Positions 8,299-63,679 of a stretch of 64,000 bases of DNA are shown here, in pieces. This stretch comes from a virus. The number at the start of each line of letters is the position of its first letter. Positions within the stretch are counted from its first letter, which is position 1. The DNA is taken from positions 32,001-96,000 of the IMG/VR virus record IMGVR_UViG_3300005466_000024; one strand, written 5' to 3'. The position numbers and the translations under genes are program-made. The notes under the pieces were generated by a model, which was given only the letters and a program-made list of their open reading frames with translations, ran no database searches and had not been told where the DNA came from.

Positions 8299-8336
8299 CG
8301 CGGTCTCCTCGCTGGGTCACCTATTCCAGCGGGGAT

Positions 8337-12543: not shown

Positions 12544-14127
12544 CTAGATCGTCGACCTCAACGTGTTCGCGCTACCACCGAAATCGTTCACCGAACTGCT
12601 GGTCGGCGCGGTGATGGTGCCGGATGTCGTGGCGGTGACCTGTCCGGCGTTGGTGATGTTGGCGACGTTGCCGGTGTTGCCCTGGGTGCGGGTGTCGCCG
12701 GTGGTGAGGTCGATGGCGAAGGTGCACACGATGTAGTTCAGCGGCATCGCGGGCAGCCACCCGAACGAGGCCTCCAGTACGTCGGGGTTGGTGAGCAGCT
12801 GGCGCACTTTGAGGCCCTGGTAGTCGACGATCAGTCCGTCGCGGATGAGGCTCTGCAGGGCGGCCTCGACCGTGGATTTGACGTTGACCAGGGTGAATGG
12901 GTAGATGGGCTGCCCGATGAGACCGGCGGCATCGAGGTAGTCCCGCAGCCGGTACACCATGGCGTCCTGCTGACCGATGATGGACCATTCCCGGTGCAGC
13001 AGGTCGGTGGGGTCGGTGGTGACACCGTGGCGCATCCGGATCTGCAGTCGCCGGGTGACCTCGACGACGGCCAATCCGTTCTGGGACTCGAGGTTCTTCT
13101 CGCCCTCGTCCTGGACGACGCCGACACCGGTCCAGCCGGTGGGGCGTTTGTAGGTGAGCGGCTGCGCCCAACTCATGGCCATCACCATGCCGGCATAGCT
13201 GGCGGCCATGAATTGGCCGCCCAGCTGGATGGAGTTGTTCAGTTCGGGGGCGTAGTAGGTGAAGGTGTCCGGACTGATCAGCATGACGCGCTGGTCGGCG
13301 AGTTCCTCGGCGTCGATGATGCGCTGGCTGGACGGTACCGGGGTGGTGGTGCCGTCGAGACCCAGGATGGCGCGGCGTTCGTAGCGGTTGGCGCTCTGGG
13401 CGTTGACGTGCTCGTCGACGAGTTGCTGCAGCGGCTGCATGGAGCCGTTGGCGGGCACCACGATCGCCACCTGTGCCTGGTTGGCGAGTTTGTCCAGGGC
13501 GTTGGAGTAGTCCAGGACGGTGGGGCTGGACGGGTTGGCCGGGTTGACGGCCACACAGACGACCTGGTAGGCCCCGTTGAGGAAGCAGAACTTGGCGGCC
13601 AGGGTGAGTTCGCTCTGGATTTGGCCGGTGGTGGTGTTGAACGGTGCCCCGTAGGCGGCCTGGACGTCGGCGTAGTCGTAGAAGATGTACGGGTTGAAGT
13701 AGTCGGACGGGGTGTACTGGTACTGGGTTTGCACGGTGTCGCCGGGTTCGATGTGCCCGCCGTCGATGACCCGGCTGAGCGCGTACAGCGCGGTGTTGGC
13801 GATGACCGAGCCGCCCACCTGCACGACGGTGTAGTCGGTGCCCTCGGCATAGAGCGCCCCGGTGTTGGGGTTGACCACGATCAGGGTGTCGGTGTTGATG
13901 CCCGGCTGGCTCAGGGTGCGGTTGACCGCCGGGGTGGTCAGCGACGTGTCGGGGTTGATCAGTACCGACTCGACGAATTTGCGGTATCCGATCGTCATCC
14001 CGAACAGTCCGACCGCGGTGGGTTGGCTGGAGTTGACGACCAGCAGCGGCCCCTGGATGGCCTGGGTGTAGACCCCGGGCGGCAGGTACTTGGAGAAGTC
14101 GATCGCCTGAACGCTGCTGCTTGCCAT
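12544..14127 (-). CDS. Tail sheath protein
   Basis: N-terminal YLPPGVYTQ. C-terminal sheath-like segment (RMRHGVTT...ASFGWLPAMPLNYIVCTF). AGGAGG RBS before ATG 14127. Confidence 0.9.
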   Translation of the reverse strand: MASSSVQAIDFSKYLPPGVYTQAIQGPLLVVNSSQPTAVGLFGMTIGYRKFVESVLINPDTSLTTPAVNRTLSQPGINTDTLIVVNPNTGALYAEGTDYTVVQVGGSVIANTALYALSRVIDGGHIEPGDTVQTQYQYTPSDYFNPYIFYDYADVQAAYGAPFNTTTGQIQSELTLAAKFCFLNGAYQVVCVAVNPANPSSPTVLDYSNALDKLANQAQVAIVVPANGSMQPLQQLVDEHVNAQSANRYERRAILGLDGTTTPVPSSQRIIDAEELADQRVMLISPDTFTYYAPELNNSIQLGGQFMAASYAGMVMAMSWAQPLTYKRPTGWTGVGVVQDEGEKNLESQNGLAVVEVTRRLQIRMRHGVTTDPTDLLHREWSIIGQQDAMVYRLRDYLDAAGLIGQPIYPFTLVNVKSTVEAALQSLIRDGLIVDYQGLKVRQLLTNPDVLEASFGWLPAMPLNYIVCTFAIDLTTGDTRTQGNTGNVANITNAGQVTATTSGTITAPTSSSVNDFGGSANTLRSTI

Positions 14128-14175
14128 GGTTTCCTCCTGCACCGCGCCCTCTGCCCCTTCTGGGGGCGGCGCGGA

Positions 14176-15467: not shown

Positions 15468-15848
15468 TCAGGTGGGCCGGCGCGGCAGCGCGGCCGACCG
15501 CGGCAGGTAACTCACGTTCTGAATTGGTTCCACGTCGATGAGTCCGGCCCGGTCGAACACGATGGGCTGGTCGAGCTTGGTCGCACCCATCATCATGTGC
15601 CGGATCGGCCCGTGGCAGAACACGAACCAGGTGTAGACGCCCTTGGGGGCGAACACCTGCGCGCTGCCCACGATTTCCCCGTCGGGTTGGGCTGTCCACC
15701 AGATCTGCCCGCGGCTGTAGTTGACGTCCTCGTAGGGTTCGTGCTCGGGCACCGGGCCGGGCCCGGGATCGTCGCTGGCCACGCCGACGTACGTGGGCCA
15801 TACCAGGGCACCCAACACACCCTGCAGGCCGGGAATCGGTTCACTCAC
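15468..15848 (-). CDS. Small virion structural protein (related to 19414..19761)
   Basis: Shares a YVGVAxxDPG...YxR..W pattern with 19414..19761. Confidence 0.5.
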   Translation of the reverse strand: MSEPIPGLQGVLGALVWPTYVGVASDDPGPGPVPEHEPYEDVNYSRGQIWWTAQPDGEIVGSAQVFAPKGVYTWFVFCHGPIRHMMMGATKLDQPIVFDRAGLIDVEPIQNVSYLPRSAALPRRPT

Positions 15849-16543
15849 ATGACCTGCACCTCATCGGGGAGTTCCCCGTTGCGCATGGCCTGCTCCCAGG
15901 TGAGGGGTTCGTTCTCGGCGAGTGCCTCTTGACTGTGCGGGTATCCGATCGGAGTGAGGGTGAGGTGCCCGCACCCGATGCCAGAGTCCACCCAGATGGA
16001 GAATCCCTGCTTCTTCGCCTCGTTGCAGAAGTGCAGGTCGTGCCCCACGAACGGGGGCAGTGGGTTCCACATCGGGATGTCGGGATCCCAGTTCTCGAAG
16101 ACGCGCCGGTGGATGCTGGTCAACCCCATCGCGACCCCGTCGACCGGGTAGAGCGCGGGGTGTTCCACCATGTTCTTGACGATGTCGCGGGTCAGTGGGG
16201 AGAACCGTGGCTTATCGACCTGCATCCACGCCATGACGTGGTGGGGCCAGTCGTGTTTGAAGTACAGGGAGCCGACGATGTCGAGGTCGTCACTGTAGTC
16301 GGCGATCCGGGTGAACGCATTTACCGGGGCGATCATGTCCTGCTCGAAGAACACCAGCCGATCCCATTCCGGGCAGTGCTGGAACGCCATGCTGACCAGG
16401 GTCTGCATGGCGACCGGCAGGTAGACCCCTTCGGTGGCGACGTTGCCGACCAAGGGGGCCTTGTCCATCTTGAGCCAGTTGAAAAAGAAACTCACAGGAA
16501 TGTGCCGGTACATGGGGAAGGCAACGACCAGCTTGTTACTCAT
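15845..16543 (-). CDS. GT-A fold glycosyltransferase-like protein
   Basis: FFEQDM (DxD-like), DIVGSLYF, GMGLTSIHRRVF, GHDLHFC, DSGIGCGH. Confidence 0.7.
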   Translation of the reverse strand: MSNKLVVAFPMYRHIPVSFFFNWLKMDKAPLVGNVATEGVYLPVAMQTLVSMAFQHCPEWDRLVFFEQDMIAPVNAFTRIADYSDDLDIVGSLYFKHDWPHHVMAWMQVDKPRFSPLTRDIVKNMVEHPALYPVDGVAMGLTSIHRRVFENWDPDIPMWNPLPPFVGHDLHFCNEAKKQGFSIWVDSGIGCGHLTLTPIGYPHSQEALAENEPLTWEQAMRNGELPDEVQVM

Positions 16544-17282
16544 GGTAGGTGCACTCCAGGTTGGTGTCGGCGCCCGCCCAGGCGGGCGCCGGCTCGGCGG
16601 TCACCGTGGCCCGCGCCAGGTGCTCGGTGATGGCCCGCTCCCAGGTGGGTGGCTCCACCTCGGCCAGTGCCCGCTGGCTGTCCTCGTAGCCGATCGACAC
16701 CTGGGTCAGGTGTCCGCAGCCGATTCCGCTGTCCACGAACACGTGCCAGCCCTGCAGCTTGGCCTGGTGGCAGAAGTGCATGTCGTGGGCGACGTGCGGG
16801 GGCTGCGGCATCCACATCTGCACTGCGGGATCCCAGTCCTCGAGGACGTGGCGGGCGATGCTGGTGAAACCAGTGGACACCCCGTCGACCTCGTAGAGGC
16901 CGGGGTTCTCCTTGAGCATGCGGACCGCGGCGGCGGTCAGCGGGGAGAAGTTCGGGTAGCCGACCTGCATGCACACGTTCACGTGGTGCGGGGGTTCGTG
17001 CCCGAAGTACAGCGAGCCGACGATGTCGTGTTCGTGGCCGTAGGCCGCAATCCGGGTGAAGGCATTGACCGGTGGGATCATGTCGTGTTCGAAGATGACC
17101 ACTCGGTCCCACTCGTCGTTCTGCAGCGCCTCCTTGGTCATCATCTCCAGCGCCAGCGGCAGGTAGGCCCCGTCGGTTTCCAGGTGCCCGACGACCGGCT
17201 CCTTCTCCATGGCCAGGAAGTTGAAGAACCATGCCACCGGTAGCTGCCGGTAGAACGGGAAAAGCACCAACAATTTCTGCAT
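16536..17282 (-). CDS. GT-A fold glycosyltransferase-like protein (tandem paralogue)
   Basis: Same motifs as the neighbouring gene (IFEHDM, DIVGSLYF, HDMHFC, DSGIGCGH). Start at MQKLLVLF. Confidence 0.7.
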   Translation of the reverse strand: MQKLLVLFPFYRQLPVAWFFNFLAMEKEPVVGHLETDGAYLPLALEMMTKEALQNDEWDRVVIFEHDMIPPVNAFTRIAAYGHEHDIVGSLYFGHEPPHHVNVCMQVGYPNFSPLTAAAVRMLKENPGLYEVDGVSTGFTSIARHVLEDWDPAVQMWMPQPPHVAHDMHFCHQAKLQGWHVFVDSGIGCGHLTQVSIGYEDSQRALAEVEPPTWERAITEHLARATVTAEPAPAWAGADTNLECTYHE

Positions 17283-17482
17283 AACTACCCCCTGATAGTC
17301 GTTCGAGAACGCAGCGTGAACACGTCCACACCCTTTAGGCTCTTCAGCGAGACACGGAAGAGAGCCCCCTATGACGTCAGCTGGCAAGCCGGTGCGCTGC
17401 GAAGTCAGCGCCGAGGACCACACCTGGTGCCTGACGCACAACTGCAAGGTCACCGACCCGCAGCATCCGAGGGACTTCGAGG

Positions 17483-18185: not shown

Positions 18186-19358
18186 CTATGCTGCGACGGG
18201 TGGTCGCCAGTCGGCCAGGTTGCCGCTGGCGGCGCGGCTCTTGTTGCAGGACTGGCAGCTGGGCACCAGGTTCTCCCGGCAGTTGTTCGAGGGGTCGCCG
18301 TCGATGTGGTCGACGTGGATGCCCGTGATGCCACCCCAGGTCAGGGTCGCCTCCCCGCCGTGCCAGTGGCACGCGTGGGGACCGGGCCCGATGGCATCGT
18401 AGAGCACCATACGGTGCTCTGGAATCTGGCCGGACTTGTCGGCTATGGGATGATTCGGCCGATAGAGGTAGATGTAGGCATACCGATACTTCTTTTGGCG
18501 ATGCAATGCCCGCAAGCAGGTTCGACATTGCCGCCATCCTGTGTTGGGATTGACGTACGTGTTCTCGGCCGTATATTCGTGGCCCTGTGCGCATTGTGTT
18601 TTGGCGGCATTACCGCCGTCCGTCCCACCACGATAACCATTGATGGCCTGGGTCACCGCCTCTAGGTGCCGCGGGTTCACGCACCGTTTGTTCTTGCAGA
18701 GGTGATCGAGCACCATCCCCTTCGGAATCGGACCAACGATCTGCTCCCACACGAAGCGATGCGCCATGTAGCGCTTGTCTGCCCCGTCCTGGATGAACCC
18801 GTGGCCCTGCCTCTTGTAGATCGGGCCGGTCCAGTTCCAGCACGGCGTGTCGAAGCCCTCAGGGATCGCGCCGACGACATAGCTGCCTTTCCATCGCTCG
18901 GCGGCTGGCGTGTGGTCCTTCAACGCCACCGTCACGTCGCCGTGCCGACGCATCCTTGCCCGATGCTTCTCGCAGTACAGCTTGCTGGTCTTGCGCTCCT
19001 CGCTGCACCCCTCGACTGTGCAGAATCGTCCCGGCTGCGGCCCCGGATGTGGTGTGACGACGGTGGGATCGCCGTAGGCCTTCCACCGCTGGTAGTGCTT
19101 GGTGCAATAGCCCTTTGCCCGCGCTTCGCGCGGGCAGGGCTCATCCTCACCCTCTTCGATAACCCCGCAGAACACCTTGACACTCTCGGTGGGTTCCAGA
19201 GGTGACCAGCCGGCTACCACCTTGCTGATCAAGGCCTGGCTGACACCGAACTGTGCGGCGAGCGCCGTCTGTCGCGTCCCCTGGGCATACAGTCGACGAA
19301 CTTCGTCGGTTTGCTCTCGACTTAGCTTGGCACGGCTCCGACGCCCCTCAGTCTCCAT
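18186..19358 (-). CDS. HNH endonuclease with N-terminal HTH, Cys/His zinc repeats and two HNH motifs
   Basis: RQTALAAQFGVSQALISKV (HTH). CxVEGC...YCxKH repeats. HRFVW...LDHLCKNKRCVNPRHL. HVDHIDGDPSNNCRENLVPSCQSCN. Confidence 0.85.
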   Translation of the reverse strand: METEGRRSRAKLSREQTDEVRRLYAQGTRQTALAAQFGVSQALISKVVAGWSPLEPTESVKVFCGVIEEGEDEPCPREARAKGYCTKHYQRWKAYGDPTVVTPHPGPQPGRFCTVEGCSEERKTSKLYCEKHRARMRRHGDVTVALKDHTPAAERWKGSYVVGAIPEGFDTPCWNWTGPIYKRQGHGFIQDGADKRYMAHRFVWEQIVGPIPKGMVLDHLCKNKRCVNPRHLEAVTQAINGYRGGTDGGNAAKTQCAQGHEYTAENTYVNPNTGWRQCRTCLRALHRQKKYRYAYIYLYRPNHPIADKSGQIPEHRMVLYDAIGPGPHACHWHGGEATLTWGGITGIHVDHIDGDPSNNCRENLVPSCQSCNKSRAASGNLADWRPPVAA

Positions 19359-20828: not shown

Positions 20829-23800
20829 TCAGAACATCGCGAAGAACTGTCCGGACAGCGCGAGTACCCTTTCGTCGGCCAGGGCCGACAGGGTACCGGT
20901 ACCCGACAGTGTGCCCGCGCTGGCGGCGCCGAGGCTGGCGACGGCCACCAGGGTGCCCGTGCCGCCGATGACGGTGACACAGACGTACCTGGGGATGGGG
21001 ATGGCGGTCAGGGTGCCCGCGCCGAGGACGGTTGCCGCGGTGGTGGTGATCGCCGCTACGGTGGCGCTGAGCCCGCCGGTGCCGGACAGGTCGGCCGATT
21101 GGGCAACGGAGGCGGCCGTCGAGGCCGTCAGTGTGCCGTGGCCCTGCCATTGGCCCGTTTGCAGGATTCTGGCGACCGTGTTCGCCGTCAGTTGACCGGT
21201 TCCGTCCAGCGCAGCGGTTTCCGGGAATTTCGCGCTCGCGGACGCAGTCAGGGTGCCCGTGCCGGTGGTGGCTGCTGTGGTGTGGATGGAGAACATCCGG
21301 GCGGTGCCCGTCAGGGCACCGTGTCCGGTGAATTGGCCGGTGGTTCCCGAGGAACCCAGGGTGGCTGCTGTCAGGGCACCGTTGCCGCGCAGCACGGCCG
21401 ACCTGGTGAACTGGGCCGACCCGGTGGCGGTGAGCCTGCCGGTGCCGGACAGCGATGCGGGCGCAGTGATGCTGTAGAGCGTGGCGGTGGCGGTCAGTGC
21501 GCCCCGGCCGCTCAGGGTCGCTGGGCGCAGGTACCGTTCGTTCCCGGTGGCCGTCAGTTTTCCGGTGCCGGAGAGCGTCGCGGCAACCCGGATCTGGAAC
21601 ATCGTGGCCGTGGCGGTCAGTGTGCCGCGGCCCCCGAGTGCTGCGGTCCTGGCGAGCCGGGCGAACGCGGTGGCCGTCAGCTCCCCGTCGCCGCCGAATG
21701 CTGCGGTGGCCTGGATCTGGAACATTTGTGCGGTCGCGGTCAACGCGCCGTGGCCTGCGGGGGTGCACACCCGGTTGAATCCCGACTGGACCAGGTTCGT
21801 GAACGTGCCGCGACCGCTCAGTGGGGCAGCGAGGGTGAATTTGGTGGCGGCGGCCGTTACCGTCAGGGTGCCGTGTCCGGTGACGGCTGCGGTGACGGCG
21901 AACTTGCTCGAGGTCGTCGCCGTGAGTGTTCCGGTGCCCTGCAACGTGACAGTTGCGCGGATCTGGTACATCCGTGCGGTCGCGGTCAGCTGGCCGGTGC
22001 CGGGCAGTCCTGCCGTCCGGGAGTATTTCGGGTAGGCCGCTGCGGTTAGGGCACCGTTGCCGCGCAGCGGTGCGGTGATCGTGAATCGGGTGGCTGCTGC
22101 CGCCGCCGTTAGGGCACCGTTGCCGTTCGGTGCGAAGGTTCGCGTGAAGCTGGCATGGGCCGTCGCGGTCAGTCGTCCGGTTCCCGGGAGCACCGCCGCC
22201 GACTGGATCCGATACATGACGGCGGTCGCCGTGAACTGTCCGGTGCCCTTGATCCCCGCTGCGGCGGGGATCTTGGCGTAGACCGTTGCCGTGAGTCTGC
22301 CGATGCCGGTCAGGGGTGCTGTGACCAGGAATTTGGCGGTACCGGTCGCGGTCAACGTCCCGCGTCCGGCCAGCGCCGCCGCCAGCGTGAACTGTTTGGC
22401 CACCGCTGTCGCGGTCAGCCGGCCCGTGCCGGCGAACATGGCGGCGACCGCGAATCGGGCGGTGGCCGTGGCGGTCAGCGTGCCGCGGCCGGTCAGTGGT
22501 GCGTTCAGTGTGAACTTGGTGGCGGCGGCGGTGACCGTCAACCGGCCCGTACCGGCCAGCGTGGCAGTCGCAGCGAACTTGGCGGTAGCGGTCGCGGTGA
22601 GCCGCCCGGTGCCCTTCAACGGCGCGGTAAGGGTGAACTTGGTGGCGGTGGCGGCGGCAGCGAGTCGCCCGATACCGGTGGTGGGTGCGGTGCTGGCGAA
22701 CTTCGCGAACGCCGTGGAGGTGAGTCGCCCCGTCCCCTTCAGTGGCGTGGTGAGGACGAACTGTGTGGCTGCTGCCGTAGCGGTCAGCGTGCCTCGACCG
22801 TTCAACGCGGCAGTACGGGCGAATTTCGGTGCGGTGGTTGCCGACAGGATCCCTGTTCCTCGCAGGTTGCCGGTGACCGCAAAGATCTGTTTGGTGGTGG
22901 CGCTCAGTACGCCGTGACCGGTCGGGTTGCCGGTCGCGAATTCGCGTTCGATGACGGTCGCGGTGAGTCTGCCGGTGCCTGCCAGGGATGCGGCGACCGC
23001 GAATCGGGCGGTAGCCGTGGCGGTGAGGATTCCGCGCCCGCCCAGTGCTGCCGTGAGTGTGAACCTGGTGGCCGCCGCGGTCGCGGTCAATCGGCCCGTA
23101 CCGGCCAGTGCGGCGGTCCTGGTGAACTTGGCGGTGGCCGTAGCGGTCAGTGCACCGGTACCCCTCAGTGGTGCGCTGAAAGTGAATTTGGTGGCCACCG
23201 CGGTCGCGGTGAGCCTGCCGGTGCCCTTCAGGGCAACGGTCGCAGCGAACTTGGCGGTACCGGTTGCGGTGAGCCGCCCGGTGCCGGACAGCGGCGCGGT
23301 AAGGGTGAACTTGGTGGCCGTGGCGGTGGCCGTCAACCGGCCCGTACCAGCCAGCGTGGCGGTCGCCGCGAACTTGGCCAGTGTGGTGGCAGTCAAGCCG
23401 CCGGTGCCGGTGAAGCTCGCGGTGCGTGATGCGGGCCCCCCGGCCGACGCCGTCGCGGTGAGCTGGCCGTGGCCGACCATGTCGCCCGCGAACATCCACT
23501 GCATGAGCGTGTATGCGGCGCCGCCCGTGCCGCCCGCAGTGGTGGCAGAGGTATTGCCGCCACCACCGCCTGCGCCAGCTCCTTGGGCGCCGCCATTGCC
23601 ACCTGTGCCTCCTGTGCCGCCGTTGCGGCCGCCACCACCGCCACCGCCGCCACCGGGATTGCCGGAGCTGGCCGTGGTACCGGCACCACCATTGGTTCCG
23701 CTGGTGGTACCGCCGGTGCCACCGCCCGCCACGGAGGACGCGCCACCGTTCGCGCCGGCGCCCGCGGTACCGAGCTGCTGTCCACCACCGCCGCCACCAC

Positions 23801-24287
23801 CGGCGGCTTGCTGCCCGGTGGCGGCGGACGGCACGGTCGGCAAACTACTGCTGCCGCCGAAACCGGCGGTACCGGAGACCCCGGTTGTCGTGGTGGCGCC
23901 ACTGATGCCACTGGCCGTCGCCGTGCCCCCAGTGCCCGCCGTACCGGCCACATTGGAGGCGCCGTTGCCGCCCTTGTTGCCGCCGTTGGCGGTGATGGTC
24001 ACCGACCCGCTGGTGAATCGCGACAACGCGCCGTTGGTTTGCGACGCGCCGCCGCTGCCCACCGTCACCGAGTACGTGGACCCGAGCGTCGACACCGACT
24101 GCCAGCCGGTGTCGACGTATCCGGCGCCGCCGCCACCGCCACCACCGCAGCAGTTGCCGACACCGAGGTTGATGCCCGTACCGCCACCCCCGCCGCCGCC
24201 GTACGCGGTGAATCGCCATTGCAGGGCCCCCGTAGGAACCGCGACGTTGCTGCGAGTGACGTTGACTTCGCTGGTGGTGACCGTCAT
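20829..24287 (-). CDS. Long fibre protein: Gly-rich N-domain plus about 40 Ala/Thr-rich 20/21-aa repeats
   Basis: Repeat consensus F-x3-A-x-L-x-G-x-G-x-L-T-A; lies in the structural module. Confidence 0.75.
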   Translation of the reverse strand: MTVTTSEVNVTRSNVAVPTGALQWRFTAYGGGGGGGTGINLGVGNCCGGGGGGGAGYVDTGWQSVSTLGSTYSVTVGSGGASQTNGALSRFTSGSVTITANGGNKGGNGASNVAGTAGTGGTATASGISGATTTTGVSGTAGFGGSSSLPTVPSAATGQQAAGGGGGGGQQLGTAGAGANGGASSVAGGGTGGTTSGTNGGAGTTASSGNPGGGGGGGGGRNGGTGGTGGNGGAQGAGAGGGGGNTSATTAGGTGGAAYTLMQWMFAGDMVGHGQLTATASAGGPASRTASFTGTGGLTATTLAKFAATATLAGTGRLTATATATKFTLTAPLSGTGRLTATGTAKFAATVALKGTGRLTATAVATKFTFSAPLRGTGALTATATAKFTRTAALAGTGRLTATAAATRFTLTAALGGRGILTATATARFAVAASLAGTGRLTATVIEREFATGNPTGHGVLSATTKQIFAVTGNLRGTGILSATTAPKFARTAALNGRGTLTATAAATQFVLTTPLKGTGRLTSTAFAKFASTAPTTGIGRLAAAATATKFTLTAPLKGTGRLTATATAKFAATATLAGTGRLTVTAAATKFTLNAPLTGRGTLTATATARFAVAAMFAGTGRLTATAVAKQFTLAAALAGRGTLTATGTAKFLVTAPLTGIGRLTATVYAKIPAAAGIKGTGQFTATAVMYRIQSAAVLPGTGRLTATAHASFTRTFAPNGNGALTAAAAATRFTITAPLRGNGALTAAAYPKYSRTAGLPGTGQLTATARMYQIRATVTLQGTGTLTATTSSKFAVTAAVTGHGTLTVTAAATKFTLAAPLSGRGTFTNLVQSGFNRVCTPAGHGALTATAQMFQIQATAAFGGDGELTATAFARLARTAALGGRGTLTATATMFQIRVAATLSGTGKLTATGNERYLRPATLSGRGALTATATLYSITAPASLSGTGRLTATGSAQFTRSAVLRGNGALTAATLGSSGTTGQFTGHGALTGTARMFSIHTTAATTGTGTLTASASAKFPETAALDGTGQLTANTVARILQTGQWQGHGTLTASTAASVAQSADLSGTGGLSATVAAITTTAATVLGAGTLTAIPIPRYVCVTVIGGTGTLVAVASLGAASAGTLSGTGTLSALADERVLALSGQFFAMF

Positions 24288-24793: not shown

Positions 24794-25633
24794 CTAGACC
24801 AGTTCGGCCCTTCCTGCCACCGGCTGCCCGAATGTGACCACCACCGTGTCGGGGGCCGGGTAGGACACCGGTGCCTCCACCCCTTCTCCGTTCACGATCA
24901 GGGCCACCGACGGGTAGTGGTCGAGGGGGTGCACGATGATCCACGGGTCGGCGGGGGTGGGCTGCTCGAAGGTGTAGCTGTCCGGCTCGGTGGCCCCCGC
25001 CGGTACCAGTACCACCCGCTGATCGGGCGGCACGACGACGACTGGGCCGGTGATGTTCACGGGTGTGCTGAAGTCCACCCCGAGCACCGGGTACGAGCAG
25101 ATCGGCAGGGTGGGGGCCAGTTTGCTGATGATGGCGCGCTGACCGATGACGTCCCAGCGTTCCTGCCCGAACCGGGTGCCGGTGCGCAGGCTGTCGCGGG
25201 TGACGGCCTGCACCCCGTAGAACCCCTCGAGTTCGGTGGCCCGCCCATTGGCGTCCCACTGCCGTACCCGGATGATGAAGTCGTGTTCGACGAGCAGCGG
25301 GTACCACTCGAACTGCGCTTCGCGGGAATCGGCCGCCCATATGCCCTGTTTGAGGAACTGCTCGGAGACGATGTGGTCGGCGAACAGGCCGTGGACCCGG
25401 CGCACATCCTTGATCGGCGGGTACATGGTGGTGCCGTAGCAGACCGAACATTCCCCGTCGGTGCTGGAGTACACGTCATCGTTACAGGCCGGGCAGCGCG
25501 GCGTGTCCTTGTCGATCTCGGGACGGGCCATGGACAGCAGTACGCACTGCTCGCCGGCCATCACCAGGGAGTCACGCACGTCCTGGCGGGTCGTCCGAAT
25601 ACAATAATCCTCAACCGATTTGATGGCGGTCAT
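24794..25633 (-). CDS. Head-closure/stopper-like protein with zinc finger
   Basis: RCPACNDD...ECSVCYGT; lies in the neck region; start coupled to the upstream stop. Confidence 0.55.
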   Translation of the reverse strand: MTAIKSVEDYCIRTTRQDVRDSLVMAGEQCVLLSMARPEIDKDTPRCPACNDDVYSSTDGECSVCYGTTMYPPIKDVRRVHGLFADHIVSEQFLKQGIWAADSREAQFEWYPLLVEHDFIIRVRQWDANGRATELEGFYGVQAVTRDSLRTGTRFGQERWDVIGQRAIISKLAPTLPICSYPVLGVDFSTPVNITGPVVVVPPDQRVVLVPAGATEPDSYTFEQPTPADPWIIVHPLDHYPSVALIVNGEGVEAPVSYPAPDTVVVTFGQPVAGRAELV

Positions 25634-26628
25634 CAGCCCTCCCCCGCCGAGCGGATCTTCTCCACGATGCGGGCTTTGTCGGTCACCCAACCCTCCCGGG
25701 CGTCGCCGTTCCAGGGCCACGGCCCGCGGTGGGGCTCGACCCGGTACAGGAAAGCCTGTCCGTGATCCCTCACGAGGTACTTCATCCAGTCGTCCGAATG
25801 CGTGAGGTCATGCTCGACCCACGTCCAGTGAGCCCGGTTGTCCAATCCGCCGTGGTACGGCGCATCGAGCCATGGCGCCTTGCCCTTGCGGGCGTCCAGT
25901 ACGGTACCGACCGGCAGGTCGTGGAAAGTAGCGTGATACCAGTCCACACCGACCGGGGTCGGGTCCGGGGGGTGGTCGCGGTAGCGTTGCTGCCAGCCAC
26001 GCTCGTCGTAGGCGTCCTGCGGGCCCAGGAAGTGGCCCTCGGACCCCTCGGGGTCGGTGCGATCGTCGAGGAGGAAGCCGGGTTCGCGCCACACGTCGGG
26101 GTCGCGGGGTGCGGCTACTCGGTGCGCGTGCCACGCGGCGACCCTCTCCCCGGCGATCGGAATTTCCAGCCAATCGTCGGGATGCTGCCGACGTATCCGA
26201 ATCGACTGGGGATTGACCCCATCCTTGCCCCTGAATCGGTAGTACTGACCCATCCATGGCTCGGCAGCGCTCGTATCACCGTCACCGGAAACAATCACCT
26301 GGTAGTGGGCCTTGGGATCCACGTTATTAGGGCCGACACCATAGGTGAGCTTATGGGTCGAGAACCTCTCGGCAGATTTGGGATCGGGAGTCCACCACTC
26401 CCCTAATCCCTTAGTTCCCAAATGGTTGAGTAGGTTCGGAGCCAAGGACAGATCCGACTTCCCGCCAAGAGCCGACTCCAATTGAGCAACGAGGTTGGGG
26501 GGCATATCTTCTCGCCGCAAAGCAATACCGCGATGCAAACGAGTAGGTGGACCACCATCCGGAACGAGTTGAGACATCCCCTGATGCCACACCGCCACCC
26601 TCTCGCGGGCCGTGAGGATGCGTCTCAT
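25633..26628 (-). CDS. Two-domain protein with putative ADP-ribosyltransferase-fold domains
   Basis: Starts MRRILTARERVAVW. Domain 1: LHRG...GEWWTPDPKSAERF. Domain 2: WYHAT.HDLPVGTVL...FLYRVEP...WVTDKARIVEKI (Arr-like). Confidence 0.55.
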   Translation of the reverse strand: MRRILTARERVAVWHQGMSQLVPDGGPPTRLHRGIALRREDMPPNLVAQLESALGGKSDLSLAPNLLNHLGTKGLGEWWTPDPKSAERFSTHKLTYGVGPNNVDPKAHYQVIVSGDGDTSAAEPWMGQYYRFRGKDGVNPQSIRIRRQHPDDWLEIPIAGERVAAWHAHRVAAPRDPDVWREPGFLLDDRTDPEGSEGHFLGPQDAYDERGWQQRYRDHPPDPTPVGVDWYHATFHDLPVGTVLDARKGKAPWLDAPYHGGLDNRAHWTWVEHDLTHSDDWMKYLVRDHGQAFLYRVEPHRGPWPWNGDAREGWVTDKARIVEKIRSAGEG

Positions 26629-27605
26629 CGGGGCCACTGCGATCCCCAGCTGATGGCCGGTGCCGCCGGGTAGAACCGCCACGCGCGGACAGCCGATGCG
26701 TAAGTTCCGCTGACGAACAGACCACGGGCGCCGCCGCCGTAGATGCCGCCGGCCACCAGCAGTGAGCCGCGTCCCATGCCGAGCAGTTTGCGCTTGGCCA
26801 TCTTGACCATCTTGACCCACTCCGGATATTCCTGGGCCAGGATTTGCGCCCACCGCTGCGAGTAGGCGGTGCGGTCGGTGTAGGTGACGTTCATGTTGGG
26901 GCGGGCCGGGATTTCGACGTAGGAGTCGCGCAGATGCCGGATCACCTCCAGGTAGGTGCCGACCACCTCGAGGCCCGCGAAGCTCGACGGTGGCGGGTTG
27001 GTGAGGTTCCAGTCCATGACGGGGAAGCCGGTGACGCTCATCCGGGTGGTGGCGATGCCCATCAGTTGGCTGATGCGTTCGCTGTCGAAGTGGGTTTGGA
27101 ACTCGTCCATCAGGTGGGGGCCACCCTCGGCGCTGTCGTAGAGATCGCCGAACATCCAGTTGACCTGCTCGACGACGAGCTTGTGCGCGTCGTCGAGGGT
27201 GTCGTAGATCGGCATCTGGTTGAGCACCTGCAGGTGGTCCAGGAAGGTCAGCAGCGTGCCGTTGACCTGGTAGGTCCATTGGGCGGTGAGCACGCCGCGC
27301 TGTCCGGTGAACTGGGGGCCGATCGGCATGTCGTACATGCCGGTGTCGACCCGGTTGATGCCGTCGGTGGTGTCGAGTACCAGGGTGCCCAGTGGGTCGT
27401 TGGTGGGTTGTACCTCCAGGGTGGGGTCCAGGTAGTACAGCTGGACGCGCAGGGTGCCGGGGTCGGCGTCCACCGCGGTGCCGTCGGGTTTGCGGATGTT
27501 CAGGGCGATGTATCCGTACCCGTTTTGGGATACGAATTTCCGCACCACGGATTGATCTTTGATCTTGGGAGAAAACACACCGATCCCAGACGGCTCAATT
27601 GCCAT
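26625..27605 (-). CDS. Head-to-tail adaptor/neck protein
   Basis: Position between head decoration genes and the stopper-like gene; helical C-half. Confidence 0.55.
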   Translation of the reverse strand: MAIEPSGIGVFSPKIKDQSVVRKFVSQNGYGYIALNIRKPDGTAVDADPGTLRVQLYYLDPTLEVQPTNDPLGTLVLDTTDGINRVDTGMYDMPIGPQFTGQRGVLTAQWTYQVNGTLLTFLDHLQVLNQMPIYDTLDDAHKLVVEQVNWMFGDLYDSAEGGPHLMDEFQTHFDSERISQLMGIATTRMSVTGFPVMDWNLTNPPPSSFAGLEVVGTYLEVIRHLRDSYVEIPARPNMNVTYTDRTAYSQRWAQILAQEYPEWVKMVKMAKRKLLGMGRGSLLVAGGIYGGGARGLFVSGTYASAVRAWRFYPAAPAISWGSQWPR

Positions 27606-31473: not shown

Positions 31474-31803
31474 TCAGCCGACTGCGACCACGGGCTGGCG
31501 TTGCGCCGCCTCGTAGGCGTCGTTCACCTGCTTGGGGATGCGCCCCCGGTTGCGCACGATGTACCCGTTCTTCCTGGCCCATTCGCGGACCACGTCGAGG
31601 TCCACCTTGTCGGCGGCGGCTTTCTTGTCGCTCTTGCCGACGACGCGCGAGTGCCGCAGCCACTTCTCCATGTCCTTGTCGAAGAGTGCCTTGTTGGCGT
31701 TCGTCAGGTCGATCTCGCGACGTTCACCGTCGTAGGTGAATCGCCAGGTGCCGTCGGCGAGGTTGCCGTCGATATCGTCGATCAGCATCTTTTGTTCCAT
31801 CAC
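31474..31803 (-). CDS. lsr2: Lsr2-like nucleoid-associated protein
   Basis: LIDDIDG...EIDLT (oligomerisation domain) and VREWARKNGY...RGRIP (AT-hook DNA-binding domain). Confidence 0.9.
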   Translation of the reverse strand: MMEQKMLIDDIDGNLADGTWRFTYDGERREIDLTNANKALFDKDMEKWLRHSRVVGKSDKKAAADKVDLDVVREWARKNGYIVRNRGRIPKQVNDAYEAAQRQPVVAVG

Positions 31804-32107: not shown

Positions 32108-33112
32108 TTAAGCTTTGCGCAAAATCATGAGCCCGCGCGGATTGATCACGACCATGCCCAAAAGTTCGTCCATGACCCAGCCACGATGGAACTTGGGCAC
32201 GTTGTTGTCCTCTTCGACGTCGAGGCTGTACATGATCGGCAGAACTCCGAGGAATTCCGGTGCCGGCGTCAGGTACGTGGTGCCCTTGGGGATGATGATG
32301 GACTTGCCGATCTGGAATTCACCGAACTGGACGATGCGCTCGCCGGCGACGACGCTGTCCTTGAACGCCCAGCCGGTCGTCGCGATGTCCCACCGGTAGA
32401 AGTCCCGGTATTCGTTGGGGTTGCACAGCAGCCGAGACGAATCCAACATGCGCTGATCGGTGAAGGTCACCGCGGTGTACAGGTCGTTGGGTTCCAGGTT
32501 CTCCCCGGCCACGGTGATCTCGTTGGGCAGGCTGCCCGTCGAGGGGTTGGCGGTGGCGTCGACCAGCCGGTACTGGGCGGCCGACACCTCGAGCAAGGTC
32601 ACCAGGCGCGCGTCCTCCTGACGCATGATGCCCTGTTTCGATTCGTCCTGGGTGTACTCCACGATGTTGCTGCGGAGCCAGTACAGGTCTTCCTTCTTGA
32701 TGTTCGGGAACGTCGCGATGCGGAACAGCTCGACCCGCACGCGTTTGCCCTCGAAGGGGGTGATCTGCACTTCGCCCTCGTCGCCGTGCAGGATGTAGGC
32801 CTGCCCCAGGTCGTCGAGCACGTCGTATTCGACTGGGACGCCGGGGGTGAGCGCGTCCTCGAGCAGGACGTTGCGCACGATGCCCTGGTAGCGCAGCTTG
32901 AGCTGGATCGGGCCGATCATGGATTGCCCGAGACGCAGCAGGCCGTTCTGCTTGTCGTTGAGGATCTGGGCGAGTTGGATCTGCTTTTCGCGGGTGGACA
33001 GTTTGCGACCGCCCATGCGTCGCATCATGCCCGCCATTTCGGCGGCGTATTCCTCGGAATGCTTTGCGAGCTTGCCGAATCCGGTTGCGACCGGGAGTGT
33101 CGCCATGTTCAT
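32108..33112 (-). CDS. Major capsid protein (Bxz1-like)
   Basis: LGQSMIGPIQLKLRYQGIVRNVLLED...FEGKRV..LFRIATFP.IKKEDLY recognised as the cluster C-type capsid. Confidence 0.92.
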   Translation of the reverse strand: MNMATLPVATGFGKLAKHSEEYAAEMAGMMRRMGGRKLSTREKQIQLAQILNDKQNGLLRLGQSMIGPIQLKLRYQGIVRNVLLEDALTPGVPVEYDVLDDLGQAYILHGDEGEVQITPFEGKRVRVELFRIATFPNIKKEDLYWLRSNIVEYTQDESKQGIMRQEDARLVTLLEVSAAQYRLVDATANPSTGSLPNEITVAGENLEPNDLYTAVTFTDQRMLDSSRLLCNPNEYRDFYRWDIATTGWAFKDSVVAGERIVQFGEFQIGKSIIIPKGTTYLTPAPEFLGVLPIMYSLDVEEDNNVPKFHRGWVMDELLGMVVINPRGLMILRKA

Positions 33113-33686: not shown

Positions 33687-36545
33687 CTAAATGAACAGCG
33701 CGCTGTCGTTGCTGGGGTCGGTGGCCGCGTACCGCACGTTCGAGGGAGCCGTGCGAGGTGAGGTCAGGCCGGGTGGGATGCGCCCTGCGGCACCAGAGGC
33801 CGCGGCCAGGCGCCGGGAGGCGCTGCGGGCGCGGGTGGCGTTGGCTTGCGCCACCGCCTCCAGGAGTCGGGTGCGGTCCACGATCGTGGCGTGGCGCATC
33901 TGCTGGGCCTGGGCGACCAGCTGCCATTTGTCCTCGTAGGGCAGGCCGCTGTTGATGTAGGCCTCGGCGTAGCGCACTGCCGCGACCGCGTCGGCCTTGC
34001 GGTTGAAGGAGGCGGCCCGTTCCTCGCGATCGGAGGTGCCGCCGCCTTCCCCGGGCGCCCAGATCTGCGAGTTGGTGGACAGGTCGGGTTTGGCGACACT
34101 GTCGCCCGCGTTCTGCCCGAACTCGCCGATGTCGTACTGGCTCTGCTGGGCCCGCTGATCGGTGGTGTCGTTGACCGGTGCCTCCACGTCCACCCGCTCA
34201 TCCGGCGCTGCAACTTCCAGCGATTCGTTGGCACGGCGATCCATGGCTTCCCTCCTGTCGACCTCAGCCCTTCTGGCCCGCCGCAGAAAAACTTCCAGCG
34301 CGGGGAACATGGCCTGCAGGGGGACGCCCGACGCTTCGGCGTAACGAGCCGCCTGGCGCCGAACGAAGTTGGGGTGGTGTGCGGTGGCCGACCGGCCGGT
34401 GGTGGCGCGCATCCAGTCGTCGAATGCCGCGAACGCGCGCACCGAGGCGTCCTTGGGTTGGGTGGAGTCGCTGACCAGTTCGACGTCGGTGAAGTCGTGG
34501 CCCTTGATGTCCTGGTCGTCGGTGCCGCTCAGCGGCGGGTCGAGCACCCGGGAGTCGGTGGTGGCTTCGGCGGCGGTGCGACGACGAGAGTCCTTGTCCC
34601 ACGGGAACTTTTTGTCGTCGTCCTTGTCCTTGTCGTCCTCGTCGTCGTCACTGCCGCACTCGTCGGAACCGGTGAGTGCGCGGTAGGCCTGGATGTCTCG
34701 TTCGAGGTCGACCGAACGACCCCGGATGCGTCGGCGCAGCGAGGCCACCAGGTTGTCGGGGGTGTTGGTGATCTTGGAATCACCGTCCCTGGGCGCTTCG
34801 ACGGCCTCGCCGCCGGGGGTCTGGCTGACGTACACCGGCTCCTGCTCGCCCTGGTCGTTGTCGTCGGTGTGGTAGGGGCCGCCCTCGACGTCGCCCGATC
34901 CGTCGGAGTCGGCGAAGTGCTGCTGGGGCGCCTTGGCGTGCCGGGAGGCCTGCACGACCCGCTCTGTCAACCCGCTCATGCGATGTGCCTCCTTGGACGG
35001 CTTTCTCTTTTCCTTGCGGTTGGCCGCAACCTGTTGCTGCAGTGGCTCGTCGTCGTCACCGAACGCCTGCTCGGCCTGCTGCAGGTCGCCCTCGGCTTCC
35101 TGCAGCAGCTCCGCGTCGGACTTGCCACTGCCATCTCCGCTGTCGCCGGAGTCGTCCGAGTCGCCGTCATCGGAGCCGGAGTCGTCGTCCTCGTAGTCGC
35201 CGTCGTCGGACTCGTCGGAATCCGATGTGTCGTCCTCGTCGCCGTCGGAGTCGTCGGAACCGTCGCTGTCGGAGTCGTCGTCCTCGGCCAGCCATGGCGG
35301 CAGGCCCTTGCCGTCGTCCTCCTCCGCGAAGACGTAGCGCCTCCCGGTCCGCGGGTCGATGAGGATTTGCGGGCGCTCGGCGTAGTCGGCAGAACGCTCG
35401 TGGTTACGGCGCTGCTTGGTGCGGGCCATGTTTCCCCTCCTCAGCCGGGGGTCTTCGGGGTCGACGTCCTCGACGTCTTCGGCGCGGCGGTCGGCGTCTA
35501 ACCCTTCTTCTTCCTGTTCGCGGTCGAGTTGCTTGGTTCGCGACAGGTCGGGGGTGCGCAGTTCCTTCGGCGACCGGATGGTCTGCTGGAACGGGACGTC
35601 GTCCTGTTCCTCGTTCTCCCACGGCGTGATGAACTGGTAGTCGCCGTCATCGAGGTCTTCCCGGCGCAGCGTGTCGATGTCCTCGGGAGCCTCCACCTCG
35701 CCGTACCCTCGCCGCTCGGTGCCGCCTTCGTGGTGGCGACGTCTCTTCTCCTCGAGTTCGGCGTCGAGCTGGTCGAGGAACTTGTCGGGGTCGAAGTAGT
35801 CGCGGATCCGCTGCCGCAGTCGGCTCGGGTGCTCCTCCTCCGGGGGCAGCTCCTTGATGGTGCGGTAGTCCCAGCCTTCGCGGTGGCCTGGCTGACGGCC
35901 GGCGGCGATCACCCGGCTGACCAGCGCGGTCTCGTCGGCCGGGTCGAACACGTACGACAATTCGAAGAACCCGAGTTTCTCGCAGATCTCGTGGACCGGT
36001 TCGACACGCCCGGTGCGCGGGTTGTACAGTTTCTCGCCCTTGCGGGCCGCGACGTGCTCGCAGAATTCTGGTTCGTCGGTGGCCCGGTTACCGCAATGGC
36101 TGCAGATGGTGACCGCGCACTCGACGCCCATCGACACCGAGTCCAGCCCGCCTTCGCGAATCTCCTTGGCCAGCTTGGGGAATCGCTGGGCGTCGACCTC
36201 CATGATGGTTTCGATGTACCGGTCGTCCCCGGCCTCGACGTAGCGCGCGGCGATGACCTTACCGCGGGCCTTTTTCCAATCTTCATTGGTATGGTTTACG
36301 AAGATCGGTTTCCCGATGAATGACCTGTAGCTCTTTTTCAATTCCTCGGAGGGCCAGGCGTCGTAATTCTGATTTATCCTGGCGGTTATCGCCCGAACTT
36401 GCGAGTACAGGAATCCTGGTTTCGGTGCCCAATTTCTGGCTATCGCGGCATGCTTCTGCCCGTGATATGCCATCAGTACTTGTTTGACGCCATCAACGGA
36501 AAAATGCCGCGATGACCCCGTCTTGATCGGGCGAACTATCGACAT
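33687..36545 (-). CDS. Capsid maturation protease fused to long acidic scaffold/internal region
   Basis: N-domain FIGKPIFVNH...SVSMG...CSHCG...FFELSYVFDPADETA, followed by a D/S/E-rich linker. Confidence 0.8.
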   Translation of the reverse strand: MSIVRPIKTGSSRHFSVDGVKQVLMAYHGQKHAAIARNWAPKPGFLYSQVRAITARINQNYDAWPSEELKKSYRSFIGKPIFVNHTNEDWKKARGKVIAARYVEAGDDRYIETIMEVDAQRFPKLAKEIREGGLDSVSMGVECAVTICSHCGNRATDEPEFCEHVAARKGEKLYNPRTGRVEPVHEICEKLGFFELSYVFDPADETALVSRVIAAGRQPGHREGWDYRTIKELPPEEEHPSRLRQRIRDYFDPDKFLDQLDAELEEKRRRHHEGGTERRGYGEVEAPEDIDTLRREDLDDGDYQFITPWENEEQDDVPFQQTIRSPKELRTPDLSRTKQLDREQEEEGLDADRRAEDVEDVDPEDPRLRRGNMARTKQRRNHERSADYAERPQILIDPRTGRRYVFAEEDDGKGLPPWLAEDDDSDSDGSDDSDGDEDDTSDSDESDDGDYEDDDSGSDDGDSDDSGDSGDGSGKSDAELLQEAEGDLQQAEQAFGDDDEPLQQQVAANRKEKRKPSKEAHRMSGLTERVVQASRHAKAPQQHFADSDGSGDVEGGPYHTDDNDQGEQEPVYVSQTPGGEAVEAPRDGDSKITNTPDNLVASLRRRIRGRSVDLERDIQAYRALTGSDECGSDDDEDDKDKDDDKKFPWDKDSRRRTAAEATTDSRVLDPPLSGTDDQDIKGHDFTDVELVSDSTQPKDASVRAFAAFDDWMRATTGRSATAHHPNFVRRQAARYAEASGVPLQAMFPALEVFLRRARRAEVDRREAMDRRANESLEVAAPDERVDVEAPVNDTTDQRAQQSQYDIGEFGQNAGDSVAKPDLSTNSQIWAPGEGGGTSDREERAASFNRKADAVAAVRYAEAYINSGLPYEDKWQLVAQAQQMRHATIVDRTRLLEAVAQANATRARSASRRLAAASGAAGRIPPGLTSPRTAPSNVRYAATDPSNDSALFI

Positions 36546-62120: not shown

Positions 62121-62501
62121 CTACCCACCCGCTCCCGCCGGACCGATGAGTGTGTCCGGCGTGGTTGGGGGTCCACCGGCCCCAGGGCCGAATATCGTGG
62201 TGCCCGGCGGGGTCGAAGTGTCGCCGAACGCTTCCCGACCGTACTGGTCCGGGCCGCCGGATCCGGCCCACGGGTCCTTGGCGGGACCGGTCAGGGTGGT
62301 GTAGGCGGTTTCGCTGGGGAACGGGGTGTCGGGGACGTGGGAGAACGGGGGATCACCGGGCATGCCGACGTTCGTGCCGACCGCACCGGCATCGATGCCC
62401 TTGGTGTCGGTGCAGGTCGGGTCGCCGGGGGCGCATTCGGCTTCTCGGATCCACTCGTACCAGACGGCGACCCGTTCGTGTGCGGTCAGGATGCGTCTCA
62501 C
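62121..62501 (-). CDS. Pro/Gly-rich small protein with RRILT..ERVAVW N-terminus
   Basis: GTG 62501 overlaps the upstream TGA; reads VRRILTAHERVAVWYEW. Confidence 0.65.
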   Translation of the reverse strand: MRRILTAHERVAVWYEWIREAECAPGDPTCTDTKGIDAGAVGTNVGMPGDPPFSHVPDTPFPSETAYTTLTGPAKDPWAGSGGPDQYGREAFGDTSTPPGTTIFGPGAGGPPTTPDTLIGPAGAGG

Positions 62502-63679
62502 GCGTACTCCGGCTTGCGCTTGTCGCGGTTGCGGACCAGGTCTTTGCCCAGTGGGGGCACCGGGTAGTCGCCCCCGCCGGGGGTCATCTCCCGGGATTGG
62601 TTGATCCAGTGGTACAGGTCGCGGGCCATCAGCCATTCGTCCCGACTGCCGTATTCCTGCGGCTGCGGCCCGGACGGTGGGGTGATGAAGTCGCTTGGGT
62701 CGTACCAGTGCGCGGCTTCGCGCAGCCCGGTGACGGCGTAATCCACGAGCATCGACGTGCGGGTCGGGCGGTGGTAGCCCGGCGCAGACACTGGGTGTGG
62801 GTCGGGCAGCCGGGGGTCGTCGGATTCCTTGGAGTAGTCGGGCAGCGGGAACTTCAGCGGGCCGGGTTCGGCTTGGCGCGGTTCCTGGTAGGGCTTGCCG
62901 GGGTGGCGGCGATCCCAGGTGTCGTGTTTCTGCTGCTCCTTGGCTCTGTCGAGGTCGTTCTTGAACTTCAGCCAGATGGTGGCCTGCATGTGGGCCGGGG
63001 AGATGCCACGTTCGGCGGCGGCCTTGCGTACGACGTCGGCGTAGGCCTCGTAGCCGGCGGGTTGGCCTCCGCGCTGCCAGCCCAGCGGGGCCAGGGATGG
63101 ACCGGCCTTGGCGAATTCGCCGCCGTGGGGGCTGTTGAGTGCGCGAGCCATGTGGGTGTCGATGGTGACTGCGTTGTCGTCGCCCATGAAGTTGCGGTAG
63201 AAGTTGTTGACCTTGGGGCCGGTGCCCAGTTCGGTGAGCACGCCGTCGGGATGGGCGTCGTGGATGCGCATGGCGCGCAGGATGTTCTCGCCCAGCCCGC
63301 TCATCCCGGTGCCGGTTTGCCGCCCCGGCTGCCTGGGATCGTCGCGCAGCCATTGCTGTTTCTGGGCGGGATCGTAGTTGAGCAGGAAATGTGCCCCGGT
63401 GGACAGGTTGGTGTCCCAGTCCTGGCGCGGCGACAGCGCGGCCATGATGGCCGCGCTGCGCGAGTAGTCCCTGTTGGTGGCCCCGGACAGGTTGTGCAGC
63501 CATTCCCGGGCCGCGGGGTACCACTGTCGGCCACCTTCGCGTTCCTCGTCGGTGGCGTTGTCCCAGTGCGACAGGGCGTTGTGGTACAGCGCCGGGGTGT
63601 CGATGAGATCCTCGACCGGGACGGCGGCCTCCTCGTACCAGACCGCTACCCGCTCGTAGGACGTCAGGATGCGCCTCAT
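62498..63679 (-). CDS. HhH/glycosylase-like (DUF7178-type) domain protein with RRILT..ERVAVW N-terminus
   Basis: WYPAAR, AALSPRQDW.TN, GPKVNNFYRN, AVTIDTHM, Y..YADVVRKAA...G.SP..MQATIW. Confidence 0.55.
   Translation of the reverse strand: MRRILTSYERVAVWYEEAAVPVEDLIDTPALYHNALSHWDNATDEEREGGRQWYPAAREWLHNLSGATNRDYSRSAAIMAALSPRQDWDTNLSTGAHFLLNYDPAQKQQWLRDDPRQPGRQTGTGMSGLGENILRAMRIHDAHPDGVLTELGTGPKVNNFYRNFMGDDNAVTIDTHMARALNSPHGGEFAKAGPSLAPLGWQRGGQPAGYEAYADVVRKAAAERGISPAHMQATIWLKFKNDLDRAKEQQKHDTWDRRHPGKPYQEPRQAEPGPLKFPLPDYSKESDDPRLPDPHPVSAPGYHRPTRTSMLVDYAVTGLREAAHWYDPSDFITPPSGPQPQEYGSRDEWLMARDLYHWINQSREMTPGGGDYPVPPLGKDLVRNRDKRKPEYA

Follow-up and report, generated by a model that had tools for sequence, protein, structure and literature searches.

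A duplicated leader peptide borders a low-GC3 ADP-ribosyltransferase-fold module in a putative cargo gene of a Bxz1-like mycobacteriophage

The stretch considered here, called the window below, comprises 64,000 nucleotides (positions 32,001 to 96,000) of the IMG/VR virus record IMGVR_UViG_3300005466_000024, a genome of 180.7 kb that is complete by the CheckV estimate. Its major capsid protein shares 75% identity with its counterpart in the cluster C (Bxz1-like) mycobacteriophages, and the source phage is a large soil mycobacteriophage of this Bxz1-like actinophage type. Among structural genes without assigned function, in the interval from the major head protein gene (32108-33112) to the tail sheath gene (12544-14142), lies a gene whose product, P0001, is composed of a short leader tag, an N-terminal module (N module), a partial second copy of the tag with a linker, and a C-terminal module (C module). 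The coordinates of these parts, and of the genes related to them, are collected in Table 1. This late, structural-gene setting is the one in which polyvalent and other virion-packaged effectors are found.

Two 20-bp direct repeats, 26585-26604 and 26129-26148, lie in frame within the P0001 gene. They are identical at 17 of 20 bases, stand 456 bp (152 codons) apart and encode residues E9-H15 (ERVAVWH) and E161-H167 (ERVAAWH), respectively. No other direct pair with at least 17/20 matching bases occurs in the gene, and 300 codon shuffles yielded a mean of 0.02 such pairs per gene, or 0.007 when only in-frame pairs were counted. The repeat had been noticed in an initial inspection of the letters (the sequence-only reading below), and its position, strand and spacing were confirmed. 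The same inspection had claimed a drop of third-position GC content (GC3) between the copies and a return to GC-rich usage at the second copy; both hold, and the block can now be delimited more closely. By a maximum-likelihood two-breakpoint fit, with 200 permutations as the control, it extends over codons 19-156 (support intervals 10-22 and 149-173), with a GC3 of 0.58 within and 0.87 outside, both motif copies falling on the outside; the log-likelihood gain of 17.3 was reached by none of the 200 permutations. The long open reading frames (ORFs) of the phage average a GC3 of about 0.8, and only about 2% of the 132-codon windows in the long ORFs of the genome have a GC3 of 0.60 or less. Since both motif copies carry genome-like, GC-rich third positions (13 of 14 of the first codons in the leader copy, and again in the internal one), only the stretch between them is compositionally foreign. 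The breakpoints of the cassette coincide with the tag copies.

The repeat motif is a duplicated copy of a shared N-terminal leader peptide. The leader, MRRILT[AS].ERVA.W[HY], opens four genes of the genome and is present as one partial internal copy in P0001; beyond these five copies none was found in the six reading frames of the 180.7-kb genome. The second leader gene, P0007, outside the window, was found by a protein search of the phage's own genome and shares the first 15 residues, and the two others, P0008 (start at 62501) and P0009 (start at 63679), came from a six-frame scan. A relative of P0009, P0052, additionally bears a C module. The bracketing of the cassette by the motif, as described in the sequence-only reading, is real, to which it has to be added that the motif is above all the N-terminal leader of three further genes. 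A repeat as short (20 bp) and imperfect (17/20) as this one might be a chance similarity without biological meaning, yet such an origin is extremely improbable, given how rarely the codon shuffles produced a pair of this kind, the coincidence with composition breakpoints and domain boundaries, and the presence of the encoded peptide at the start of three other genes and of many relatives.

The tag copies differ at synonymous sites, and the DNA upstream of them is unrelated, which indicates that selection acts on the tag peptide. The first half of the leader (eight codons, MRRILTAR) is missing from the internal copy. AlphaFold predicts, with modest confidence, a short helix at residues 7-18 of the leader, and the structure model has low confidence at the internal tag and linker. 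In all five copies the residues preceding RVA fit the pattern A/S-x-E, which is only suggestive as a hint of cleavage; the capsid and protease genes showed no core tag motif, so no argument from a shared cleavage site is possible. A twin-arginine (Tat) signal was ruled out, as the segment after RRILTA is charged, not hydrophobic. Among database relatives the leader occurs in a longer form (..RIVTAREQ.EML.PWR.A), with a second type reading ILKQAE.F.WR.A and a third WGLWGL. In most of the aligned homologues an R-x-A element follows the N module, and R-x-A, often as R-x-A-M-P, also divides the modules of giant multidomain relatives. Two adjacent giant tagged proteins of about 1350 aa each are encoded on a 150-kb phage contig (L005:1319-5383 and about 5380-9312, plus strand); they string together GNAT domains, Arr-like C modules and other units, and most of their boundaries read R-x-A-M-P or R-x-A-A.

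An exhaustive profile-free search retrieved 86 relatives of P0001. The smallest are standalone proteins (110-180 aa), and the largest, of 800-1600 aa, also carry GNAT and other domains. About 70 of the 86 match only the C half (residues ~200-326) and about 14 only the N half (residues 19-158). The 90%-identity cluster of P0001 holds three architectures: tag and C module; N and C modules; and N and C modules with a GNAT domain. The first is represented by P0097 (179 aa), in which RRILTARERVAVWHQ is followed directly by AAPRDPDVW and the C module. Its C module differs from that of P0001 at two positions (~99% identity), and it lacks precisely the N module together with the internal copy of the tag (residues 17-171 of P0001). 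P0098 and P0094 are identical to P0001. In P0095 and P0096 the same N and C modules are joined by the linker LPVRGAQDRQVT in place of IAGERVAAWHAHRV, and a GNAT domain, above the Pfam cut-offs, follows an EPRVAG junction. That LPVRGAQDRQVT arose by a frameshift of the same DNA was ruled out, neither shifted frame of the window giving it on inspection by hand. Variation among relatives at the repeat boundaries, on which the idea of a swappable cassette had been made to depend, is therefore present, from tag and C module (P0097) through N and C modules (P0001) to the same pair with an added GNAT domain (P0095, P0096).

Further away the combinations multiply. In P0003 a homologue of P0007 replaces the N module ahead of the C module, and in more distant relatives a Cys-rich unit or a GNAT domain stands in this place; the order is swapped to C then N in P0026, P0013 is C then C, and the combinations with GNAT, ParB-like and other modules likewise vary in order. 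The N-only proteins with 60-70% identity have either the long form of the leader or its second type. Each module type was found behind at least four leader types, which we read as the leader following the phage lineage and the cargo moving between lineages. No tag-N-only protein of more than 70% identity was found. Searches for the DNA of close relatives among viral, metagenome and genome contigs, with the N module, back-translated junction patterns and P0097 as queries, gave nothing or a single relative of 35% identity.

These architectures also bear on the possibility that the N + C combination is ancestral and that a deletion removed the N module from genes of the P0097 type, in which case the low GC3 would reflect an older transfer or a module-specific constraint. 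Direct repeats around a segment favour deletion, and the existence of two different N + C linkers gives the combination some age. A deletion from repeat to repeat would, however, leave WHAHRVAAPRD, and WHQAAPRD is observed; a GC3 of 0.58 against 0.87 outside the block, and about 0.8 in the long ORFs, suggests little time for amelioration; and more distant relatives of the C module have unrelated N-terminal modules or none. Loss from an ancestral two-module gene is accordingly improbable.

The N module, modelled with AlphaFold2 at a predicted local distance difference test score (pLDDT) of 82, was compared with 48,161 representative chains, and nearly all of the 50 best rows were ADP-ribosyltransferases (ARTs). 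The best matches were TreX (Z 6.0, root-mean-square deviation (rmsd) 3.1, 92 residues aligned), EcPltA (5.4), PARP13 (5.2) and pertussis toxin S1 (5.2); ARTs also predominate in the Foldseek list, whose best E is 0.012. The modelled N module has a generic ADP-ribosyltransferase fold, at modest absolute scores, and the ART fold expected of it in the sequence-only reading is in this sense borne out. Its conserved features are LHRG (R33), G74 and W79-W80-T81; among 16 homologues R33, G34, G74 and W79 hardly vary, and T81 comes right after the WW pair. Invariance of E123 is confined to the four closest sequences, the distant homologues having a nearby acidic residue whose alignment is not confident. 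ART toxins of the R-S-E type (Rhs toxin TreX, EcPltA, pertussis toxin S1, heat-labile enterotoxin A) head its structural matches, with Z of 5-6. As in these toxins, strand 1 contains an Arg (LHRG) and strand 2 an aromatic-Ser/Thr motif (WWT), and in the close subfamily E123 is a candidate for the acidic residue at the usual spacing (R33, T81, E123). On the other hand, the Z scores are modest, at 7-14% identity, there is no ExE motif, and the acidic residue cannot be aligned across distant homologues. The N-module profile had no match in the PDB. Standalone N homologues of 60-70% identity (P0010, P0012, P0109, P0110) end 1 to 22 residues from the motif equivalent to EIP, the 22-residue tail of P0010 containing a second tag-like motif.

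The model of the C module has a pLDDT of 79 overall and of more than 90 in the core, the N-terminal arm being poorly modelled. The core features are WYHAT (H232), Y258, R265, W270, Y295 and the stretch VEP...PWNG. Its top three structural matches are all Arr (9iaf, Z 8.5; 9iba, Z 8.1; 2hw2, Z 7.5), followed by Tpt1 (7.3) and by toxins at 6 or less. The best Arr match superimposes with an rmsd of 3.2 Å over 93 residues, Foldseek against 2hw2 gives E 1.3e-3 at probability 1.00, and Arr is the sole PDB match of the C-family profile (E 1.1). In Arr the residues that matter for catalysis are H19 (HGT), Y49 and D84 (DPN) (PMC6092378). H232 of WYH-A-T aligns with H19 and is nearly invariant, and the strand-1 H-x-T of the closest structure (Arr; PDB 2hw2, 9iaf, 9iba; PF12120) is kept. 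Unlike Arr, however, the C module has an extra N-terminal arm of about 50 residues, a Trp (W270) at the position of Y49 and, in a hand alignment of VEP..GP..WNG to VEP.GP..DPN, an Asn (N307) at that of D84. Because the His is kept, the Tyr position is Trp and the Asp position appears to be Asn, the C module is not placed in the Arr family: as modelled, it is Arr-like by fold and lies outside that family. Of the expectation that an Arr-like domain follows the second repeat, the fold stood and membership of the Arr family did not, no match to PF12120 having been obtained. The extra arm, and the occurrence of the C module as a shuffled unit of tagged cargo proteins, make a role in rifamycin resistance unlikely. 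Arr-family ARTs have been noted in Microbacterium and Gordonia phages (PMC9503650).

In related phages the genes on either side of P0001, assigned to phrog_2791 and phrog_2806, are conserved neighbours, and the content of the slot between them differs. In Alice it is a tagged GNAT (gp115). In Phrappuccino two separate tagged genes, gp67 and gp68, overlap by 4 bp, the former consisting of the tag and a module without a Pfam match that has an LWRG-type motif, and the latter of the tag and an Arr-like C module. Of two uncultured relatives, one (L003) has an untagged Cys-rich gene in the slot, and the other, of 144 kb (L004), has a tagged gene with an HxGH nucleotidyltransferase motif, followed by a tagged gene with N-module-like and ParB-like parts, both Pfam matches lying below the curated cut-offs. 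Other tagged cargo thus occupies the slot in Alice, Phrappuccino and one of the two uncultured relatives, and the proposal of a polymorphic cargo slot is upheld by the comparison of orthologous loci. The first of the two genes of L004 (5978-6697, plus strand; motif GGAFNPPHEGH; Pfam CTP_transf_like at 20.6 bits against a cut-off of 21) could encode a virion-delivered enzyme resembling nicotinamide or nicotinic acid mononucleotide (NMN/NaMN) adenylyltransferases that would counter depletion of nicotinamide adenine dinucleotide (NAD+). It is also worth mentioning that Alice gp113, a solo GNAT singled out as probable capsid cargo (PMC5512222), lies immediately upstream of gp114, the homologue of the upstream neighbour of P0001.

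The layout in Phrappuccino raises the possibility that P0001 arose by fusion of adjacent, overlapping tag-N and tag-C genes, a small deletion having removed the stop codon of the first and the MRRILTAR of the second, with the internal motif as the remnant of the second leader. The two unfused genes in the same slot of that phage, the two adjacent tagged genes of L004, the missing first half of the internal leader and the resident GC3 of both motif copies agree with such an origin. It is countered by P0097, whose leader (ERVAVWHQ) equals the first copy of P0001 at both informative positions (V13 and Q16) and not ERVAAWHAHRV, the C modules being ~99% identical; by the lack of a tag-N-only protein above 70% identity among the relatives retrieved; and by the first leader, which has resident GC3 where the N module behind it has not. 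A resident leader ahead of a foreign N module would require a crossover at the tag even under fusion. We regard fusion, the chief rival of the reading favoured below, as possible, if rather unlikely.

The reading favoured here, to which we assign a probability of about 0.6, is that P0001 is a small two-module polyvalent cargo protein whose N module arrived recently between tag copies, that the tag marks it for loading into the virion, and that the modules use NAD+ on the host. The N module would have come from a source of lower GC3 through a recombination event within or beside the DNA that encodes the tag, in which it was either inserted, with duplication of the tag, or exchanged for an earlier cassette flanked by two tags; that recombination took place at the tag we infer from the coincident boundaries. 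Several points weigh against this reading. The junctions of the relatives are known at the protein level only, which leaves the direction of the change (insertion or deletion) without proof. At the empty site WHQ is joined directly to AAPRD, a junction that a simple crossover between the repeats would not give, because AHRV would remain, and the shared homology amounts to only ~20 bp at 85% identity. As to the modules, the distant homologues of the N module share no invariant acidic residue, the N module has no match to a curated family (Pfam at E up to 1, PHROG), the C module has none in Pfam (including PF12120, Arr-ms) at E up to 1 or among PHROGs, and the Trp and the apparent Asn noted above occupy two positions that matter in Arr. 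Finally, an S78 prohead protease was not detected in the genome. The S77 type, that of T4, was not detected either, in a search that was also empty in control genomes and hence uninformative.

With regard to its function, the tag, a short predicted helix, would mark proteins for loading into the virion and perhaps also serve as a processing site at which the modules are separated proteolytically; after ejection into the host the modules would modify host targets using NAD+. An obvious candidate for any processing of the tag is a 952-aa protein encoded just upstream of the major head protein gene (33687-36545, minus strand), with a head-maturation-protease-like domain at residues 60-208 (phrog_18299). 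No virion proteomics of this phage or its relatives was found, nor did a literature search turn up any paper on a capsid-targeting sequence in polyvalent proteins. Alternatively, the tag might not be a signal for loading or cleavage but a helix that docks to a host factor or phage chaperone, a degron, a signal for timing, or a feature needed for the coupled translation of late-operon inserts. Packaging and cleavage are themselves inferred, the tagged genes lie at three places in the structural region and not beside the portal, and the tag is kept between modules, where docking is possible and a role in translation start is impossible. Against a function of this kind, all tagged genes lie amid virion and late genes, the same modules recur in giant polyvalent-type proteins, whose accepted model is delivery by the virion (PMC5512222), and conservation of amino acids rather than DNA argues against a role at the RNA level; we hold it to be unlikely. 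Beyond the favoured reading, it may be suggested, tentatively, that the tag-coding sequence has a double role, its peptide marking and perhaps separating the cargo and its DNA providing homology for in-frame capture of foreign effector modules, as in an integron-like cassette system. If this is so, Bxz1-like and related actinophages run integron-like cassettes of injected effectors, and the locus shows such a system at three successive stages, with one, two and three modules, among near-identical phages.

As to the gene itself, P0001 starts at an ATG that overlaps, as ATGA, with the stop of the upstream gene, and it ends in a stop that shares one base with the ATG of the downstream gene; it is translationally coupled to both neighbours. 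Public gene calls place the start later, at M42 (290 aa) or M126 (206 aa), these shorter calls being P0002 and P0094; the start is taken as M1, since the leader is conserved in P0007, P0008, P0009 and P0097 and the ATGA overlap is present. Probably the gene finders were misled by the low-GC3 cassette. The product of the downstream boundary gene starts with MTAIKSVEDY, as do its homologues. The whole P0001 protein had no match in Pfam (E up to 1), in PHROGs, by tblastn against 50,697 phage records or by phmmer against PDB sequences, and the 12-kb neighbourhood of the gene had no megablast match among the phage records. The leads from the ESM Atlas were all weak (EspN/DUF4765 0.92, PARP 0.88, Arr-ms 0.88).

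Table 1. Parts of the P0001 gene, other genes with the leader, and the genes bounding the slot (window coordinates unless indicated)
Feature	Position	Strand	Remarks
Whole coding sequence of P0001, 331 aa: tag, N module, tag copy, C module	25633..26628	-	ATG at 26628
Leader tag copy 1, aa 1-16, MRRILTARERVAVWHQ	26581..26628	-	contains the first 20-bp repeat, 26585-26604
N module, ART-like fold (model), low-GC3 cassette, aa 17-157	26158..26580	-	AlphaFold2 model m938b55eb8960; ends ...DDWLEIP
Internal tag copy and linker, aa 158-171, IAGERVAAWHAHRV	26116..26157	-	contains the second 20-bp repeat, 26129-26148
C module, aa 172-331: arm, aa 172 to ~218; Arr-like ART-fold core (model), aa ~219-331	25636..26115	-	AlphaFold2 model m4f4bfe708463
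Leader gene P0007, 129 aa, YRG...FVTTN...EGDEYIY motifs, among baseplate-like genes	G000:C1:28989-29378, outside window	-	
Leader gene P0008, 126 aa, GTG start, Pro/Gly-rich	62121..62501	-	directly upstream of terminase-like large ORF
Leader gene P0009, 393 aa, DUF7178 domain	62498..63679	-	just upstream of terminase-like ORF
Upstream slot-boundary gene, conserved structural-block gene (phrog_2791; homologue of Alice gp114, Phrappuccino gp66)	26625..27605	-	
Downstream slot-boundary gene (phrog_2806; homologue of Alice gp116, Phrappuccino gp69)	24794..25633	-	likely start is the ATG overlapping the cargo-gene stop

Some other genes of the structural region may be recorded here, all on the minus strand of the window. 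A minor-tail-like protein of 1152 aa (20829-24287) consists of a Gly-rich N-terminal part followed by about 30 tandem units of about 24 residues (..GTGRLTATA.AKF...). The structural block also holds a gene for an HNH endonuclease (18186-19358) and two tandem glycosyltransferase genes (15845-17453), and a gene for an Lsr2-like nucleoid protein (31474-31803) adjoins the major capsid gene.

Multidomain polyvalent proteins of phages are regarded as weapons injected against host defences, and the locus bears on how their modules are assembled and how the cargo is recognized for packaging. It offers a natural before-and-after comparison, in which near-identical phages have one, two or three modules and the breakpoints lie at the tag. 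Two uncatalogued ART-fold module families of actinophages are defined, and the idea that the tag guides capture and loading is directly testable in the cultured Mycobacterium smegmatis phages Alice and Phrappuccino.

Among known systems, the internal proteins IPI-III of phage T4 share a short N-terminal capsid-targeting sequence (CTS), and T4 also packages an ART, Alt. As in T4, the present phage puts one short N-terminal peptide on unrelated proteins, ARTs included, with the genes in the late region (in part PMC9503650); four of its genes carry it. There is no sequence similarity between the CTS and the leader, which, unlike the CTS, also recurs between modules. Virion-packaged ARTs and polyvalent proteins have clear precedents (PMC5512222, by Iyer, Burroughs, Anand, de Souza and Aravind, 2017; PMC9503650). 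Like polyvalent proteins, the P0001 family joins unrelated host-modifying domains (ART, GNAT, ParB-like) in one polypeptide encoded among late structural genes; its effector domains are multiple and shuffled, with two ART-fold modules of different families in P0001, and the same N and C modules recur within multidomain relatives of polyvalent type of 800-1600 aa. Unlike typical members of that class, P0001 has only two modules in 331 aa, both from families outside Pfam. A leader or delimiter peptide and an empty/filled-site polymorphism are not described in PMC5512222 or PMC9503650, the words 'leader' and 'linker' being absent from the 2017 text. What is new here is the series of empty, filled and extended sites among near-identical phages, the agreement of the compositional break with the boundaries, and the comparison of the slot in cultured phages.

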